Shown one piece after another: positions 1 to 5,640 of a stretch of 64,000 bases of DNA; the first letter of the stretch is position 1; every line of letters begins with the position of its first letter. The stretch is from the NCBI GenBank assembly GCA_963797555.1, contig CAWCPV010000004.1:128001-192000 (forward strand), given 5' to 3'. The DNA comes from an uncultured Gammaproteobacteria bacterium (GTDB taxonomy: Bacteria > Pseudomonadota > Gammaproteobacteria > CAWCPV01). Made by a program: the position numbers and the translations under genes. The notes beneath the pieces are model-generated. The model saw only the letters and a list, made by a program, of their open reading frames with translations. It searched no databases and was not told where the DNA came from.

Positions 1-154
1 CTAACGAGGCTTCGCCTCAGACCGTCGAGGCATGGGGAGCACAGACGGAGGGTTCCGAGTGTTGCAGAGCGTGGTAGGGTGTACGCGCTGCGTTAGATCG
101 CTCAAGCGATCGGACCCTGTGGGTCAAGGAAGTGACACTCGGAGCCCAGGAGCC
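1..154 (+). ncRNA. Putative structured RNA/ssDNA leader (multibranch fold)
   Basis: 16-bp stem 50-65/132-147 with three G-U wobbles, enclosing hairpins at 68-89, 96-111 and 113-125. Further stems at 6-18 and 22-26/44-48. Ends at the AGGAG RBS (148-152). Confidence 0.5.
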
Positions 155-1198
155 ATGATAGCCAAAAACGTTGCGGAGCTGATCCGAGATCATGTGGTGC
201 TGGAGGTCGAGAGCCTCGATCGGCTGTACCTCAACGGCTATGTGCCTGGGCTGCAGAGCGAAGGGGGCTTTGTGCATTTCGTGCGCAGTCACCTTGGCTA
301 TCCCATCGCCTCCACCGCGGTGATCGCCCCCATGACCGAGGCGTTCGTCCGCTCCATCGAGCGGTTTGCGCAGGAGAGGCGCATTGATGTGGTCGCCTTC
401 GAGAAAGGACAGCGCAAGGACGATGTGGCGAAGGAGTACCTGGCAAGGTGTGCTTTCTCCGAAGGGGTATTGTTCATCGGCAAGGCCCAGGAGAAGGCCT
501 CGGTGTTCCGCACCACCGGCAGGAAGCACCCCGAGACCGGCCAGCGCTATCCTTGGATCACGCGCGGCTCGGCCCTGCCCAACCACTATTACTTCTACCT
601 CCTGGATGAGGACTTCGGGCCGCTGTTTATCAAGTTCTGCTCGTACTTCCCCTATGCGGTCAAGGTGTGCCTCAATGGCCACGAGTGGGTCAAGCGCCAG
701 CTCGCCAAGGAGGGCATCGCCTTCACTGCCCTCGACAACGGTGTGCTCTGGTGCGAGAACCCCCAGCGGCTGCAGCAACTGTGCGCGGAGCTGGACGCCG
801 AGAAGATCGAAGCGGTGTTTGGCAAGTGGCTGGCGCGGCTGCCTCACCCCTTTCGCCCGGAGGACCGGCAAGCGGGTTACCGATACGCGCTGTCCATCCT
901 GCAGGCCGAGTTCTCGCTCACCCAAGTGCTCGATTGCCCCCGAACGGGCCGGCAGTTCTTCGAGGAGGTCATCCGCGAGAACCTCGACCTCGGCCGGCCC
1001 GACCGGGTGCAGCTCATCTTCGGCCGCAAGGTCACCCGCCGCACCCCGGGGACGTTTCGCACCCGCGCCCATGCCCGCTTCTTCCGGCTCACCTTCGCCC
1101 TCGACGGACCCATCAGCCCCGCTCGGGCCACGCGCGCCTTCCTCCAAGCCAGCAGCGCAGTGGACCGGCTCATCGAAGAGGTGAAACTCGCCGCTTGA
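155..1198 (+). CDS. Putative transposase of unclassified family (347 aa, likely missing a central/C-terminal block)
   Basis: AGGAG RBS then ATG155. Motifs DRLYLN, GKAQEK, HYYFYLLDEDFGP, FCSYFPY, NGHEW, QAEFSLTQV, RENLDLGRPD. C-terminus KLAA. Confidence 0.6.
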   Translation: MIAKNVAELIRDHVVLEVESLDRLYLNGYVPGLQSEGGFVHFVRSHLGYPIASTAVIAPMTEAFVRSIERFAQERRIDVVAFEKGQRKDDVAKEYLARCAFSEGVLFIGKAQEKASVFRTTGRKHPETGQRYPWITRGSALPNHYYFYLLDEDFGPLFIKFCSYFPYAVKVCLNGHEWVKRQLAKEGIAFTALDNGVLWCENPQRLQQLCAELDAEKIEAVFGKWLARLPHPFRPEDRQAGYRYALSILQAEFSLTQVLDCPRTGRQFFEEVIRENLDLGRPDRVQLIFGRKVTRRTPGTFRTRAHARFFRLTFALDGPISPARATRAFLQASSAVDRLIEEVKLAA

Positions 1199-1310
1199 AA
1201 ACTTGACTCAAGATCCAAGAATCAGTCGCACTCAAGGACTTCTAGCGGCTGCTGGGCCAATCGTTCACCCAGACGAGCCAGTCGGGTAACGCTTCGTAGG
1301 AGGGGTGCCG

Positions 1311-1796
1311 ATGGAGGAATTGCCGCTGCAATTGGAAATCGTGGGGCTGCCCGCGCATGTTGAGAGCTGGAGCGTTGCAAAGATACCCGGCTTCGTGCTT
1401 GCGGTGCTGAAGCGCTGGCGCAGAAACCAGGTTCGGCTGCCGCGCACTTTCAGCATGCTCATGTGCCCCCAAGTGGAGGTCAACGCCGTTGGCGGCTTGC
1501 CGCCCAGGGTCGTGGAGCTGACCGACCCCAAGCTCCGCTGCCGGCACTTCACCGGTTGCCACAAGCCCTATCTGGTGGTGCTCTTCACCGGCGAAGATGC
1601 GGAGGAGCGCCGGATCGAGGCGCAGGCGTTTCTCTCTTGGTCGGAAGGGTACAACGTGGAGCTGACACCCGATACCGTGCGCTTGACGTTCGCCGCGGCC
1701 AGCGAGGAGACGATCCACGAACGCGGCGATTTTCCGCCACCGCGGACCATACAGGAGTTGCTCGCGACCGGCGAGCTGGTGAGCATCTTGTCCTAG
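1311..1796 (+). CDS. Hypothetical protein (161 aa)
   Basis: AGGAGG at 1298-1303, 7 nt before ATG; open frame with protein-like composition; no recognised motif. Confidence 0.55.
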   Translation: MEELPLQLEIVGLPAHVESWSVAKIPGFVLAVLKRWRRNQVRLPRTFSMLMCPQVEVNAVGGLPPRVVELTDPKLRCRHFTGCHKPYLVVLFTGEDAEERRIEAQAFLSWSEGYNVELTPDTVRLTFAAASEETIHERGDFPPPRTIQELLATGELVSILS

Positions 1797-2166: not shown

Positions 2167-3619
2167 ATGGGTGAGTCGAGACTGGAGCCGGTGGGGGCGC
2201 AAGAAAGGATTGCATCGTGTGCCGGGGTGCAGACGGCTGGGGGCCGGGTGCAAGTGCGCTGGGAGACCGAGAGCGCGGCCACGCCGATGGGCCAGCTTGC
2301 GTACTTCATCGAATTTCTCACGCTCACTGGACTGTGGTCGCGCTGGCAAGAGGGCTACCCGTTGCGTTACGTGAGTCCCAATGCGCCGAGCAAGGCCGAG
2401 GTGCTTGGCACCTGGATGCTGTCGATTCTGTCCGGTCACAGGCGCTATGCGCATGTCACGGCGATCCGCTGCGATGGCGTCAATCCGGGGCTGCTCGGCA
2501 TGAACAAGGTGATCAGCGAGGATGCCCTGCGCCGGGCGCTCGCCGCGAACCCCCGAAGCCGCAGGCGTCGCCTGGCTGGACCGGCACCTGGAGGAAAGTG
2601 TGGCGCTGTTGCTCGATGCGCCGTGGATTCTCGACATCGACATGGCGGGGCTGCGGCTGGTCGTCGGCGCCGAGGTCAAGGCGGGCGATGCGCACTCGGG
2701 CAGCCACAGCCTGCCGGGGCTGCTGAAGATACTCGACGCCCTCTCGCCCCCCAGACGACCGAAGCTGGTGCGCGGCGATTGCGGTTTCGGCTCCGACACC
2801 CTCATGGCTCCGCTGGAGGAGCGGCAACCACCCTACCTGTTCAAGCTCAAGCTCTCGAAGAACGTCAAACGTCACATCGAGCGCATCTTCTGGGGCAGCG
2901 GCTGGTCCGATGCCGGTCAGGGCTGGGAAGGCAAGGACGGCAGCCTGCGTCTGTGTGGCTGGCAGGCGCCGCGGCGCGTCGTGGTGTTGCGCCGCCCGCT
3001 CCAGGGCAAAGTGCTGATTGCGCAGGACCATAACGGCCAGCAACTGCTGGGTTTCATCGAGGCGGACCGAAAGGCGGGTAAGAACATCACCGGCTACGAG
3101 TATGCCGTGCTGGTGACCAATACCGACTACGAGATTCGAAGCCTCGGCCAACTCTACCGGGACCGGGCCGACGCCGAGAATGCCTTCGAGGAGCTGAAGA
3201 ACCAGTGGGGTTGGGGCGCCTTCACCACCCACAACCTGCACCGCTGCCAGCTCTCGGCCCGCGCCGTGGCGCTCATCTACAACTGGTGGAGCCTGTTCGT
3301 CCGCCTGGCCCACCCCAAGGCCCGGCGCGAGGCCATCACCAGCCGGCCGTGGTTGCTCGCCTCGGTGGGACGCAAGACCGAACATGCCGGCCAGACCACC
3401 CTGACGCTCACCGGATTGCATGCCCATTTCGGTCAAGCCAAAGCAGCCCTGATGCGTGTCTCTGCCTTGTTCCAGACCTGGACAGCCTACGCTGCGGAGC
3501 AGTTGAACCCGACCTCCGTCTGGCACCTCGTCTGCGACCATCTCAAGCGCCTCCTCGCCGGCGTTAAACCGCCTCCCCACCGTCGGGCTATCGAAAATCA
3601 TACGTGCGCCATCGGCTAA
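2167..3619 (+). pseudogene. IS1380-family transposase, frameshifted (~2550) with an apparent internal deletion after WILDID
   Basis: ORFs 2167..3033 and 2522..3619; motifs LDID, VRGDCGF, YRDRADAENAFEELK. Confidence 0.8.
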
Positions 3620-3632
3620 CTGCGGTTTTTAG

Positions 3633-5640
3633 TCCGACTTCGCGGATTCGCGGGGTAGGGATAGCGTAAGTGGTTGAAATTGCGAGAGGGTGCCTGGCAA
3701 GGTCTGCACTACATCGCGGCGGCTGAGGCAGTGTGGGCGGTGCTGATTTTCGGAGCTGGTGGTGCGGGCAGTTCGAGCTTCAACTGCGCGAGGAGCAGTT
3801 GCAGTTCTGGCTCAGGTTGGGTGTAGCGGGTGAACGTCAATTCGCGCCCATCGGTGGTCGGCACCGGTACGTCGACCATCTGCACGGCGGCGAATTTCTC
3901 CAGCACGCTGCGCGTGGTTAATCCAGGCGCGAGCGCATGCAAACGTCGCCCGAGCGTGACATGCAGACAATAGGCAAGAAAGGCAATGAAGATATGGGCT
4001 TCGATACGCTCGATGTGTTGATGAAAGATTGGCCGAATGGCCAAATCCCCCTTGAGATTCTTGAATGCTTCTTCCACCGCCACCAGTTGCAGGTAAAACC
4101 CCCATAGCTTGGCGGGATCGGTGTCGGTGAGATTGGTGCGCAGCAGATACCGTCCTTCGCGCCGGCGCACTTCACGCAGCTTATCGCGGCGCAGGCGGTA
4201 GCTAAACGTGGCGTCCTTGGGGTCGACCTCCAGTTGAACCAAGCGCCATACCGCCGGGCCGTGTTGGCGCGCCGCACCGAGCTTCATCAGCAGCTGCTCG
4301 CGGGTGAGCTGCATGGTCGCGAGTTTCTTCAACCGCGCCCATAACCACTTCAGCTTGCGCCGTCGTATCGCACGCTCCTTCGCCACGCGCTGTTCACTTT
4401 GCGCGTACACATACAGCTCCCCATCCTGCGCCAACAGTTTCACGGCTACGCCGGGGCGCGCTTCCCGCCACGGCTTGAGCAACAGCGCGCTCTCCAATTT
4501 GCTGAGCCGCCCCTTGGGCGTGCCCACCAGGTCAGTGCACTGGCGGGCGACTTGCGCGCATCTCTTCCAGCACCGCTTCGGTCGGAATGCCGCGGTCCAT
4601 CACCCAAATCCGCTGCGCTCTTCCGTACTGACGCTCAATGCGCGCGAGGAACTCCTTCAACGTCGTCTTGTCGGCCGTATTGCCCACCAACACTTCATAG
4701 GCCAAGGGCAAGCCTTCCGGGGTCACCACCCAGGCGATCACCACCTGCACACAGTCCCTGCGCTTATCGCGCGAGTGGCCGAATCGTCGTTTGTCCTGCT
4801 CCGACTGCGGGGGCTCACACTCAAAGTAGGTGCTCGTGAGGTCGTAGAGCAGCACCTCGAAGGTGGCATTGAACAGATCCCGCCACCGCCGCACCAGATG
4901 GTCAAAGACCGCCGCCTTGTGCTCCAGCAAGCGGTCGTGACAGACATACAGCCGGTGGCTGTCGGAGAGCGCCGCATCCGCTCCGAGCAAATCCGCCAAG
5001 GCCGTACGGCCAAACCACTCCCGGTGCAACCGCCACTCGCTGCCCGGTGCCAGCAACCGATAGGCCACGAGCACGAATAACACCTGATCCCACCGAGTGC
5101 CCTTGCGACTCGGCGTTAACCGTTCCCACCAGAAGCGATCTAACTGCAATTCCTCCCACAGTTGCAGCGCCAGCCAACACGCACCCCACTGCCGCGGTCG
5201 GCACAGCCGCAATTCTTTCAGCCGCAAACGTACCACCGAAGCATCCCTCGACAGCTCTTCAGATCGCTCCTCGGGAAACAACGACATCGTGCGCGGTGTC
5301 AGCGCCCCGTCTTCGAACACCTCAATGGATTTGCGCCACGCCAACTCCTGCGAGGAGTTGATCTCACCCAAATACAGCACATGCCGTTGCAGCACGCGCC
5401 CACCGCTCAGGCGCCTATTCTCGACAATACTCCAGTAACGGTGCTCCTTGCCGTCTTTCTTCCGCGTCGTGGCCCTTAGAAACATGATGGAACATCATTA
5501 TCCGCAGATTTTTCCCCTTGAAAACAAGCAAGGTCTTCACTACAGCGCGTTTCAACCCTTTTTGGCTCACCACGGTCCCCACAAACAATCACTTACCCCT
5601 GGCCAGCGGGCCAATCGCCGTGCGAATCCGCGAAGTCGGG
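3633..5640 (-). mobile_element. IS1634-family element
   Basis: 19-bp IRs TCCGACTTCGCGGATTCGC / GCGAATCCGCGAAGTCGGG; TTAG duplication at 3629-3632 and 5641-5644. Confidence 0.9.
3709..5485 (-). pseudogene. IS1634-family transposase, split at ~4530
   Basis: ORFs 4532..5485 and 3709..4527; motifs LYDLTSTYFE, GHSRDKRRD, MDRGIPT, VEEAFKNLK, RPIFH. Confidence 0.85.

Follow-up and report, generated by a model that had tools for sequence, protein, structure and literature searches.

A widespread insertion-sequence family without terminal inverted repeats, inserted at CTAG and encoding a predicted TBP-fold protein

The first 1245 bases of the window, by which we mean the whole stretch of 64,000 nucleotides from an uncultured gammaproteobacterium analyzed here, hold one open reading frame behind a strongly folded leader. 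They raise the question whether this DNA is a mobile element and, if so, by which mechanism it moves and what the leader contributes. The original prediction regarded it as an element without terminal inverted repeats whose leader can pair with its own terminus, and proposed an RNA- or ssDNA-guided transposition system in analogy to IS200/IS605 and IS110. The coordinates of all features are collected in Table 1.

Table 1. Features of the element at the start of the window, with positions on the forward strand.
Feature	Position (strand)	Description or basis
CTA, left part of the CTAG target	1..3 (+)	Empty-site contig; divergence of three paralogues directly upstream
Conserved left end	1..36 (+)	Proposed nick site CTA^R, 5-bp hairpin, conserved box (AGACCGNCGAG.CATG)
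Inserted element	4-1244 (+)	1241 bp; deletion derivative of a ~1.8-kb element
Subterminal hairpin GAGGC-TTC-GCCTC	6..18 (+)	Covariation and DNA fold
Multibranch leader	50..147 (+)	Closing stem 50-65/132-147 around hairpins ~64-90, 96-111 and 113-125
CGTTAG, reverse complement of bases 1-6	91..96 (+)	Sequence
GGAG Shine-Dalgarno	141..144 (+)	3' strand of the closing stem
Second AGGAG	148-152 (+)	
ORF, 347 aa	155..1198 (+)	Residues 1-305 of a ~531-aa protein fused to its C-terminal ~42
Right end	1199..1244 (+)	Box AAACTTGACTCA at 1199-1210, TCAAG at 1232-1236, terminal CTA at 1242-1244
G of the CTAG target	1245 (+)	Empty site; CTAG ends 54 of 57 distinct right borders

The base at which the window opens is an arbitrary cut in the contig (C4:128001) that coincides by chance with a real left end. 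Three copies within the genome diverge exactly at this base, and contigs from two other metagenomes do so as well (place 1501, loose ends). Across 56 leaders of many phyla the left end hardly varies; the C14 copy has its right end at 1245 as well, and the right-end boxes are kept in the downstream regions of homologous loci. An empty site was found in one contig of one run (X3), stemming from a diverged relative in a related metagenome, and there the order is left flank, CTA, G, right flank. The joint runs from 1503 to 2784 with 38 letters in between, which are the G plus the diverged right flank; the true skip is therefore 1504-2744 in our locus L001, corresponding to 4-1244 of the window. 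Both ends of the span 1-1245 given in the original prediction are hereby confirmed, with the correction that the inserted DNA is 4-1244 and the rest is the CTAG target. The short motifs it had pointed out, CTAACG (1-6), CGTTAG and CTTCTAG (1239-1245), are all present.

Across 62 distinct sites the left border starts with CTAA (43), CTAG (17) or TTAG (2), and right borders mostly end in CTAG (Table 1). As left borders reading CTAA occur, a duplication of 4 bp is excluded. On the sequence, the CTA at 1-3 may just as well represent the left of two CTA copies, one at each border. No terminal inverted repeat was detected between the first and the last ~40 nt (21 inverted pairs were listed, none of them terminal). 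Hairpins at the right end that share loop and strand with those at the left end occur in actinobacterial clades only. Several genomes carry two to four near-identical copies each, with differing flanks, and full-length relatives measure 1784-1875 bp. We also collected 35 metagenome stretches that match a pattern for a right end followed by a left end: in 34 of these the ends share a single CTAG, and two full ends side by side occur in none of the 35. By our own reading a true right end lies upstream in 16 of the 35 junction stretches. Half of these 16 (8) show, still farther upstream, a segment resembling a left end, that is a mini-element beside a full one, and one (L122) consists of two full copies with 74% identity. 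For left ends of the CTAA type no such junction was found in viral contigs or in the loci collected here. Searching 40 genomes of the same class, none closer than class level, with each flank yielded no orthologous locus, and neither a circle nor a single-strand intermediate was seen.

The copy in the window is itself incomplete. Compared to a 531-aa relative (P0002; 94% identity over 88% of the query) its reading frame has lost 184 aa (residues 306-489) in frame near nucleotides 1069/1070, and a contig from an RNA library (run X16) contains ~545 extra nucleotides at this point. The window copy lacks the DNA-binding domain as well as the tyrosine presumed to be catalytic and, judged by its sequence, is dead, non-autonomous and internally deleted.

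Its full-length relatives form a large family of 12,089 clusters at 50% identity. Relatives occur in 232 of 423 candidate stretches from a one-genome-per-species collection, and members span more than ten phyla, some being carried by large plasmids. The absence of a recognizable transposase motif was borne out, as Pfam and NCBIfam returned no match for the ORF of the window, these two and PHROG none for the family protein, and five full-length members hit no Pfam family at E up to 1. A sequence-profile search of the PDB with the whole protein and with the N-domain returned nothing but weak MarR-type and ribosomal-protein S2 rows with E above 0.08. In the window's genome (84.6% complete) both PF02486 and PF25227 are absent. 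The Pfam and NCBIfam searches do pick up the neighboring IS1380- and IS1634-type genes with clear scores. All neighbors in the ESM Atlas are labeled “hypothetical protein”. Among the 25 plasmid matches listed, 23 fall on a hypothetical or uncharacterized protein only, on no gene, or on sequence without annotation; another falls on a hypothetical protein together with a gene that has no name, and a weak match (24.5% identity) is named an ArsR regulator. Some sources put HxlR or ArsR regulator labels on some members. Our literature search found no insertion sequence with a TBP-fold or Rep_trans-like transposase; ISfinder was outside this comparison and may list the family under some name. Passages of PMC8147514 did not clarify the ISDol1 group. 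The proposed mobile element lacking terminal inverted repeats is supported, and its family is named in none of the libraries searched; also supported is that the protein belongs to no characterized insertion-sequence family among those compared.

AlphaFold2 models of the family protein (pLDDT 87.8 and 87.6) suggest two parts, an N-terminal part of ~375 aa with a TBP-like saddle, which is the fold of the Rep_trans initiators, followed by a MarR-like winged helix. Comparing the N-domain alone to 48,161 chains gave whole-domain matches at Z 9.2 for an archaeal TBP (177 residues aligned) and at 7.2-8.1 for other TBPs, with the Rep_trans initiators 4cwc_A (Z 7.0, rmsd 4.8, 183 aligned) and 4cij_A (Z 6.8, rmsd 4.8, 191 aligned) on ranks 7-8 below the TBPs (Z 7.2-9.2); Z values of 7-9 are middling by the tool's own scale, and TBP, a non-enzyme, outscores the Rep proteins. 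Foldseek reported a probability of 0.89-0.94 and E of about 2e-3 against 4cij. Residues 2-376 reached Z 9.0 against TBP, and residues 381-501 Z 9.1-9.6 against HxlR/PadR/MarR winged helices. An RNase H fold does not appear among the structural matches, which is negative evidence only.

A further hint towards the chemistry arises from the conserved residues. D22, R23, E113, Y146, H176, E252, K324, Y326 and R334 do not vary among 26 diverse members, and E336 hardly does. These residues occupy alternating positions of the predicted strands, and Y326 is flanked by K324 and K328. Our guess is that Tyr326 could be the catalytic nucleophile.

The leader is the most conspicuous part of the element. 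The fold predicted for the 154 nt in front of the ORF, the 50-65/132-147 stem around three hairpins, was reproduced by RNAfold: bases 1-160 fold with -74.1 kcal/mol (z -4.47), a stability that 0 of 200 shuffles attain. DNA parameters lead to the same architecture (z -4.17), and the antisense strand folds more weakly (-62.2 kcal/mol). The three irregular pairs of the closing stem (U53-G144, U63-G134, G64-U133) are indeed all G-U. The expected covariation among homologues was also observed, with a conserved structure and compensatory changes. In the leader alignment 81.9% of the cells are paired, a share that 0 of 500 shuffles attain; the shuffles give 73.7%, and sliding the partners gives 32-50%; 22 pairs show double changes, and 12 of 14 closing-stem pairs are changed on both sides. 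The subterminal hairpin is paired in 99.6% of the cells; of 56 sequences, 38 have A-U and 17 have G-C at its pair 8/19. When the 56 homologous leaders were folded singly, 38 formed the three-branch multiloop, and in 47 the sense fold was better than the antisense fold. These per-sequence folds support strand specificity, whereas the fixed-column count of the alignment does not, since A-C/C-A cells (94) outnumber G-U cells (44). We tentatively attribute this excess to register shifts in the leader alignment.

A Shine-Dalgarno-like tetramer lies 5-10 nt upstream of the start codon in 52 of 54 leaders, and in each of these 52 pairing covers three quarters or more of it in the fold of minimum energy. 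On these modeled folds a 5' UTR that would hide the Shine-Dalgarno sequence, presumably with a regulatory role, is the better explanation of the multibranch part. An Rfam scan of bases 1-1400 with E up to 10 gave only four matches at chance level, and a scan for consensus promoters only two weak sites in the region.

Several known systems invite comparison. Elements of the IS200/IS605 and IS91/ISCR/Helitron groups move by HUH-type single-strand or rolling-circle reactions; they have no terminal inverted repeats, carry subterminal hairpins on one strand, use a fixed short target without variable duplication, and form head-to-tail arrays and short non-autonomous derivatives. The family elements also lack terminal inverted repeats and show head-to-tail arrays and short non-autonomous derivatives, and they may agree in one-strand hairpins and in a fixed short target without variable duplication. 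Pfam and NCBIfam find no HUH/Y1/Y2 domain as in IS200/IS605 and IS91/ISCR, the predicted nuclease fold is unrelated, and in contrast to IS200/IS605 and IS91 the same trinucleotide CTA precedes both proposed cleavage points. IS110/IS1111 elements, which use a bridge or seeker RNA, likewise have no inverted repeats and place a structured non-coding region in front of the enzyme gene; the family differs from them by the absence of a DEDD match in Pfam and NCBIfam, a fixed target, no evident target or donor loops and a terminus complementarity that is clade-specific. From DDE transposases the family is set apart by having neither a DDE family match nor terminal inverted repeats. Of the analogy originally drawn with IS200/IS605 and IS110, the single-strand side appears to fit (hairpins on one strand, a fixed site, apparently no variable duplication); the guide is not retained.

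Closer in predicted fold are the Rep_trans proteins (PF02486; pT181 RepC/RepD/RepDE, CTX-phi RstA and some ICE relaxases), characterized by a catalytic tyrosine with three acidic metal ligands, which resemble the family in the two-lobed TBP-like fold and in a proposed tyrosine nick beside a hairpin, repeated at start and end. The PF02486 profile was not matched at E up to 1 by five members, and hhalign of the N-domain profile (A3) against two Rep_trans proteins (from genomes G252 and G236) gave a probability of 0.1%, the template profile comprising only 2 sequences. The family domain is also larger, fused to a winged helix, and would work for an insertion sequence, not for a replicon or a conjugative element. 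The Rep-Arvir rolling-circle initiators (DUF7845) of archaeal viruses and plasmids are reported (PMC13107129) to have a TBP-like catalytic domain of ~300-375 aa and, behind it, a winged helix of MarR type; their catalytic Tyr lies in a K-x-Y motif, and acidic residues around positions 25 and Tyr+20 are essential. According to the paper, bacterial Rep_trans proteins do not show this fusion to a wHTH. Measured against this description, the family model has the same domain order of TBP fold and MarR-like wHTH, a K-x-Y strand, acidic residues near the N-terminus and about 18-20 after the Tyr, and a conserved hairpin in the cognate DNA site. It differs in that there is no sequence match (the DUF7845 profile, PF25227, was not matched at E up to 1), that its hosts are bacterial, and that it is a 1.8-kb multicopy chromosomal insertion with two ends instead of a virus or plasmid replication operon.

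We propose, with modest confidence, an insertion sequence that moves as a single strand or by rolling circle and whose enzyme is a TBP-fold tyrosine nuclease, with the terminal hairpin marking the nick and the leader acting as a translation-occluding UTR. The single protein of ~531 aa would be a metal-dependent tyrosine nuclease acting like the Rep_trans and Rep-Arvir initiators, the β-strands of its saddle bearing the invariant acidic, basic and tyrosine residues. One strand would be nicked at CTA^R at both ends, on the left 2 nt before the conserved hairpin and on the right after TCAAG-N5, and the element would move single-stranded or by rolling circle into the CTA^G of a CTAG without variable duplication. 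Bases 1-36 may then represent the end-recognition and nick module and bases 50-147 the 5' UTR, whose closing helix would bury the ribosome-binding site and keep translation low.

The guide originally envisaged, in which the leader as structured RNA or ssDNA pairs with its own terminus and/or the target and directs recombination, appears very improbable. In its favor the leader is structured, conserved and covarying, and a complement of the terminus occurs downstream in 19 of 56 leaders compared to a shuffle mean of 1.8. Of these 19, 16 belong to one clade, in which an exact inverted copy of the first 24-26 nt lies ~70 nt downstream and varies together with the terminal hairpin loop in three variants, each matching its partner. 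The window, L015 and L018 also carry a 6-nt complement. Against the pairing of nucleotides 1-6 with 91-96 as a family feature stand the 37 of 56 leaders without any complement, the lack of CGTTAG in two decayed paralogues of the same genome (C3 and C7), and the three complements outside the clade, which lie elsewhere in the leader and at differing structural positions (linker versus closing stem). In addition the hairpin loops have just 3-5 nt and no Rfam family matches. With CTAG as the constant target no site is left to be programmed, and neither an RNA nor a DNA guide is needed or indicated.

The leader might instead act at the DNA level, on the displaced or circular single strand, as a single-strand origin that primes synthesis of the complementary strand or as a folded protein platform; the element would then in effect be an integrating mini rolling-circle replicon. 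Small rolling-circle plasmids show the same order of nick site, folded region and rep-like gene; the identical architecture under DNA parameters, the strand-biased folding and the head-to-tail junctions sharing one CTAG point in this direction. We nevertheless regard it as unlikely, as a free circular form was not seen and the ribosome-binding site, canonically spaced in 52 of 54 leaders, is formed by the 3' strand of the closing stem, which points to a role at the RNA level. The two roles of the leader do not exclude each other. Slightly less probable again is a conventional double-strand cut-and-paste or copy-paste reaction by an unrecognized nuclease that targets CTAG and duplicates CTA (or TA), with the hairpins as protein-binding sites and the leader as a regulatory UTR. 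IS630-type elements target CTAG with duplication of TA, and CTA at both borders together with the single CTAG of the empty site is compatible with a 3-bp duplication. This scheme has to cope with missing terminal inverted repeats, with hairpins at the left end (and the actinobacterial right end) that lie on one strand in the same loop orientation, with a predicted fold that gave no RNase H-like match, and with the CTAA borders that rule out 4 bp. The least probable reading is that the ORF encodes a DNA-binding regulator or passenger and that the unit is mobilized in trans by another enzyme. While the HxlR or ArsR labels on some members and the mostly non-catalytic, DNA-binding nature of TBP folds fit such a role, the ORF is the sole gene of the 1.8-kb unit and has no co-occurring second gene, the ends are conserved over more than ten phyla, and the invariant Asp, Glu, Tyr, Lys and His on the sheet suggest catalysis.

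Returning to the TBP-fold tyrosine nuclease, we tentatively go one step further, here with somewhat more doubt than confidence. The family may represent a phylum-spanning, unnamed class of insertion sequences whose transposase, a TBP-fold tyrosine nuclease joined to a winged helix, is distinct from the DDE, DEDD, HUH, serine, tyrosine-recombinase and Cas1 types. One strand would move from CTA^R to CTAG, the leader might be translational lock and single-strand origin at the same time, and the family would link bacterial and archaeal rolling-circle replicons to transposons. Since its members are mostly unannotated, genome annotation misses a common insertion sequence, one that also breaks assemblies into contigs of ~2 kb. 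If the proposed chemistry is true, a new nuclease fold would be added to the ways of moving DNA, with a bacterial, transposon-borne counterpart of Rep-Arvir and a compact enzyme for site-specific (CTAG) joining of single-stranded DNA.

The start of the window at C4:128001 is an arbitrary cut, and the reality of the terminus was therefore checked. The original prediction had regarded the first six bases as an end of the element, and they are indeed a genuine terminus: with a query extended by 1 kb of upstream DNA, the matches to the copies on contigs C3 and C7 of the same genome open precisely at window base 1, next to unrelated flanks. Contigs from two other metagenomes likewise diverge at this base. 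The right end at 1245 is common to the copy on contig C14, and in agreement with the prediction no terminal inverted repeats linking the two ends were found.

We consider an empty site in public contigs the decisive piece of evidence for insertion. The locus itself was found in sequencing runs X1 and X2, in pieces with 0 differences. A contig of run X3 (depth 7.71), which stems from a relative, tracks the left flank up to the CTA at position 1503 of L001 (the window locus with its flanks), continues with 38 letters, and resumes at 2784. These letters are the G plus a diverged right flank (33 out of 39 positions agree, compared by eye), so that the true skip is window 4-1244 and the unoccupied site in this single contig reads CTAG, split in the window as CTA/G. 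Because CTA is present on both borders the cut may be drawn anywhere within three bases. We infer the long left part of the X3 contig from the same depth at the joint 1346/1420. The genome (assembly 84.6% complete) contains decayed copies only; the mini-derivative among them retains CGTTAG.

Features of the element, its family and its surroundings
Feature	Location	Strand	Remark
Window copy	window		decayed
Rearranged fragment	C5		copy in genome
Two left-end and two right-end fragments			copies in genome
Mini-derivative, ~130 bp	C11:12560-12800	minus	decayed; window 54-102 matches fused directly to 1192-1235 matches
Distant pseudogene of the protein	C17:12858-13538	minus	23% identity (residues 17-242); broken by three TGA codons
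IS1380-family gene	window 2167-3619		frameshifted; downstream of element
IS1634-family gene, C-terminal part	window 3709-4527	minus	downstream of element
MITE-like mini-elements	L123:126-436, L126:140-226, L129:414-500, L117:543-718		head-to-tail directly before full elements; one shared CTAG
Clade with inverted terminus copy	L020, L022-L026, L028-L031, L034-L037, L039-L042		first ~100 nt of each element

The element sits in a graveyard of insertion sequences (L001:1-1500, i.e. C4:126501-128000, and window 2167-4527). Upstream, translation read by eye indicates an apparent IS110-type fragment and an IS21 IstB-like ORF, and 752 bp from this region recur on C5 with 100% identity. The 163-aa ORF directly after the element (window 1305-1796, plus strand), into whose region the orthologous empty-site contig extends, has no match in Pfam or NCBIfam.

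For the family, borders were collected at 80 loci from a one-genome-per-species collection, in which 232 out of 423 candidate stretches encode a relative. Full-length elements measure 1784-1875 bp. The 62 distinct left borders start with CTAA (43), CTAG (17) or TTAG (2), and the 57 distinct right borders end with CTAG (54) or CTAA (3). No variable target duplication is visible among these loci, and in genomes with 2-4 copies the flanks differ at every copy. The left flanks of the 62 insertions exhibit a strong preference for A at -4 (four bases before CTA; 47 insertions) and a lesser preference at -5 (30 insertions), and target recognition therefore reaches beyond CTAG.

Metagenomes were further scanned for a right end followed by a left end. 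The pattern demanded CTAG before CG, which places junctions of CTAA-type elements outside the sample. In 34 of the 35 stretches one CTAG is common to both ends, in one there is a 3-nt gap, and in none do two complete ends lie side by side. A genuine right-end box, read by eye, is located upstream in 16 stretches; by our reading the others are left ends whose flank matches the pattern by chance. Eight of the 16 true junctions possess a left-end-like segment further upstream, forming mini-elements of ~85-310 bp head-to-tail before the full element, and L122 consists of two full copies with 74% identity. This suggests that the right end is a preferred target or that the arrays are products of the mechanism. 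At locus L040 the whole ~44-bp right end is tandemly duplicated 3' of the ORF, unit one ending in CTAA and unit two in CTAG.

The 347-aa window protein is up to 94% identical to 531-aa proteins over its first 88%, with an in-frame loss of residues 306-489 relative to the full-length homologue P0002; a contig from RNA library X16 contains ~545 extra nt at the deletion point. Lacking Y326 and the winged helix, the window copy cannot be autonomous. The X16 metatranscriptome contigs span the whole element (L001:1503-2775), leader included, of a ~90-95% identical full-length relative, which can give neither start nor strand and may reflect DNA carry-over. All 8000 scored candidates in a 90%-identity set pass E 0.001, and the family has 12,089 representatives at 50% identity. 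Pfam, NCBIfam and PHROG gave no match. Among the 25 plasmid hits listed, 23 are hypothetical or uncharacterized proteins, no gene, or without annotation; the remaining two are a hypothetical protein plus unnamed gene and a 24.5%-identity hit named ArsR.

AlphaFold2 reached a pLDDT of 87.8 (alignment of 26 diverse members; N-domain alone 87.6). In the model residues 381-501 adopt a winged-helix fold, with Z 9.1-9.6 to HxlR/PadR/MarR proteins. Compared with 48,161 chains, the modeled N-domain has whole-domain matches solely to TBPs (top Z 9.2, the others 8.1-7.2) and to two Rep_trans initiators, 4cwc (7.0, 183 residues aligned) and 4cij (6.8, 191 aligned), all moderate values; Foldseek gave 4cij a probability of 0.89-0.94 at an E of about 2e-3. 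Sequence-profile searches of the protein found no relation, and hhalign against two Rep_trans proteins yielded a probability of 0.1%. D22, R23, E113, Y146, H176, E252, K324, Y326 and R334 are invariant, E336 nearly so, and these residues occupy alternating positions on predicted strands.

The sequence features listed in the original prediction are all present in the window. The proposed multibranch leader was reproduced, as the RNA fold of bases 1-160 (-74.1 kcal/mol, z-score -4.47, equalled by none of 200 dinucleotide shuffles) is a 16-bp closing stem (50-65/132-147) enclosing three hairpins; its three irregular pairs, U53-G144, U63-G134 and G64-U133, are all G-U. The architecture is unchanged under DNA parameters, and the antisense strand folds less stably (-62.2 kcal/mol). 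We aligned 56 non-redundant leaders, from 59 distinct ones after removal of the mis-anchored L045, L052 and L085. The first ~36 nt are almost invariant, and a pair in hairpin 6-18 switches from A-U (38) to G-C (17). The alignment supports conservation and covariation of the leader fold: with the window's structure projected onto it, 81.9% of cells are paired compared to 73.7% after shuffling (reached in 0 of 500) and 32-50% with slid partners, percentages that are not probabilities since the leaders are related. Double changes occur at 22 out of 30 pairs, including 12 of the 14 in the closing stem; the misaligned third hairpin has a low score (53%). Folded individually, 38 leaders form a three-branch multiloop, 14 have two branches, two have four and two none. 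The sense strand is stabler than the antisense in 47 out of 56 (mean -4.3 kcal/mol), whereas the fixed-column count points the other way (94 A-C against 44 G-U cells). Of the 54 leaders with a recognisable start, 52 have an SD-like tetramer 5-10 nt upstream of the start codon, in the closing stem's 3' strand; in each of the 52, at least three-quarters of it is paired. Burying the SD is the simplest role for this stem.

The suggested complementarity of terminus and leader is present in the window, whose linker CGTTAG (91-96) reverse-complements bases 1-6, but it is not a family feature: an exact 6-nt match lies downstream in 19 out of 56 leaders (in shuffles 1.8 on average and 6 at most). Sixteen of these come from a single clade whose leaders carry their first 24-26 nt again, in inverted orientation, ~70 nt downstream. 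This copy follows three variants of the terminal hairpin loop and is therefore real, though clade-specific; it puts a further potential nick site on the opposite strand. The remaining three are the window, with the match in a linker, and L015 and L018, where the closing stem contains it. The complement is absent from L016, L017, all actinobacterial and CTAG-type leaders, and the C3 and C7 paralogues. For the window, chance or a vestige is the best reading of the match. The element is not a bridge-RNA system.

The data are compatible with a tyrosine nuclease that cuts a single strand. At either end it would cleave after CTA, its winged helix would recognise the hairpin on the left and the box on the right, and the cut strand would be rejoined into CTA^G; catalysis, strand and form of the intermediate are inferred parts of this model. 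In its favor, both borders are preceded by the same trinucleotide, hairpins occur on a single strand, unlike copies form head-to-tail arrays with a single CTAG, short derivatives retain the ends only, and the predicted fold is Rep-like. According to PMC13107129, the archaeal Rep-Arvir initiators share the architecture of this protein; their catalytic residue is Tyr283, within K-H-Y-Y, E25 and E303 are essential, and the origin is a hairpin. The same paper states that a wHTH fusion has not been observed among bacterial Rep_trans proteins. The resemblance of the element's protein to Rep_trans and Rep-Arvir proteins is one of fold and architecture and does not extend to sequence. The element would work similarly to IS200/IS605 and IS91, yet without their defining HUH enzyme. 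No description of such an insertion sequence was found in the literature, a search to which ISfinder was external. We file the element with the single-strand/rolling-circle transposons, as a variant not previously described, and there is a fair chance that it represents a new transposase class.
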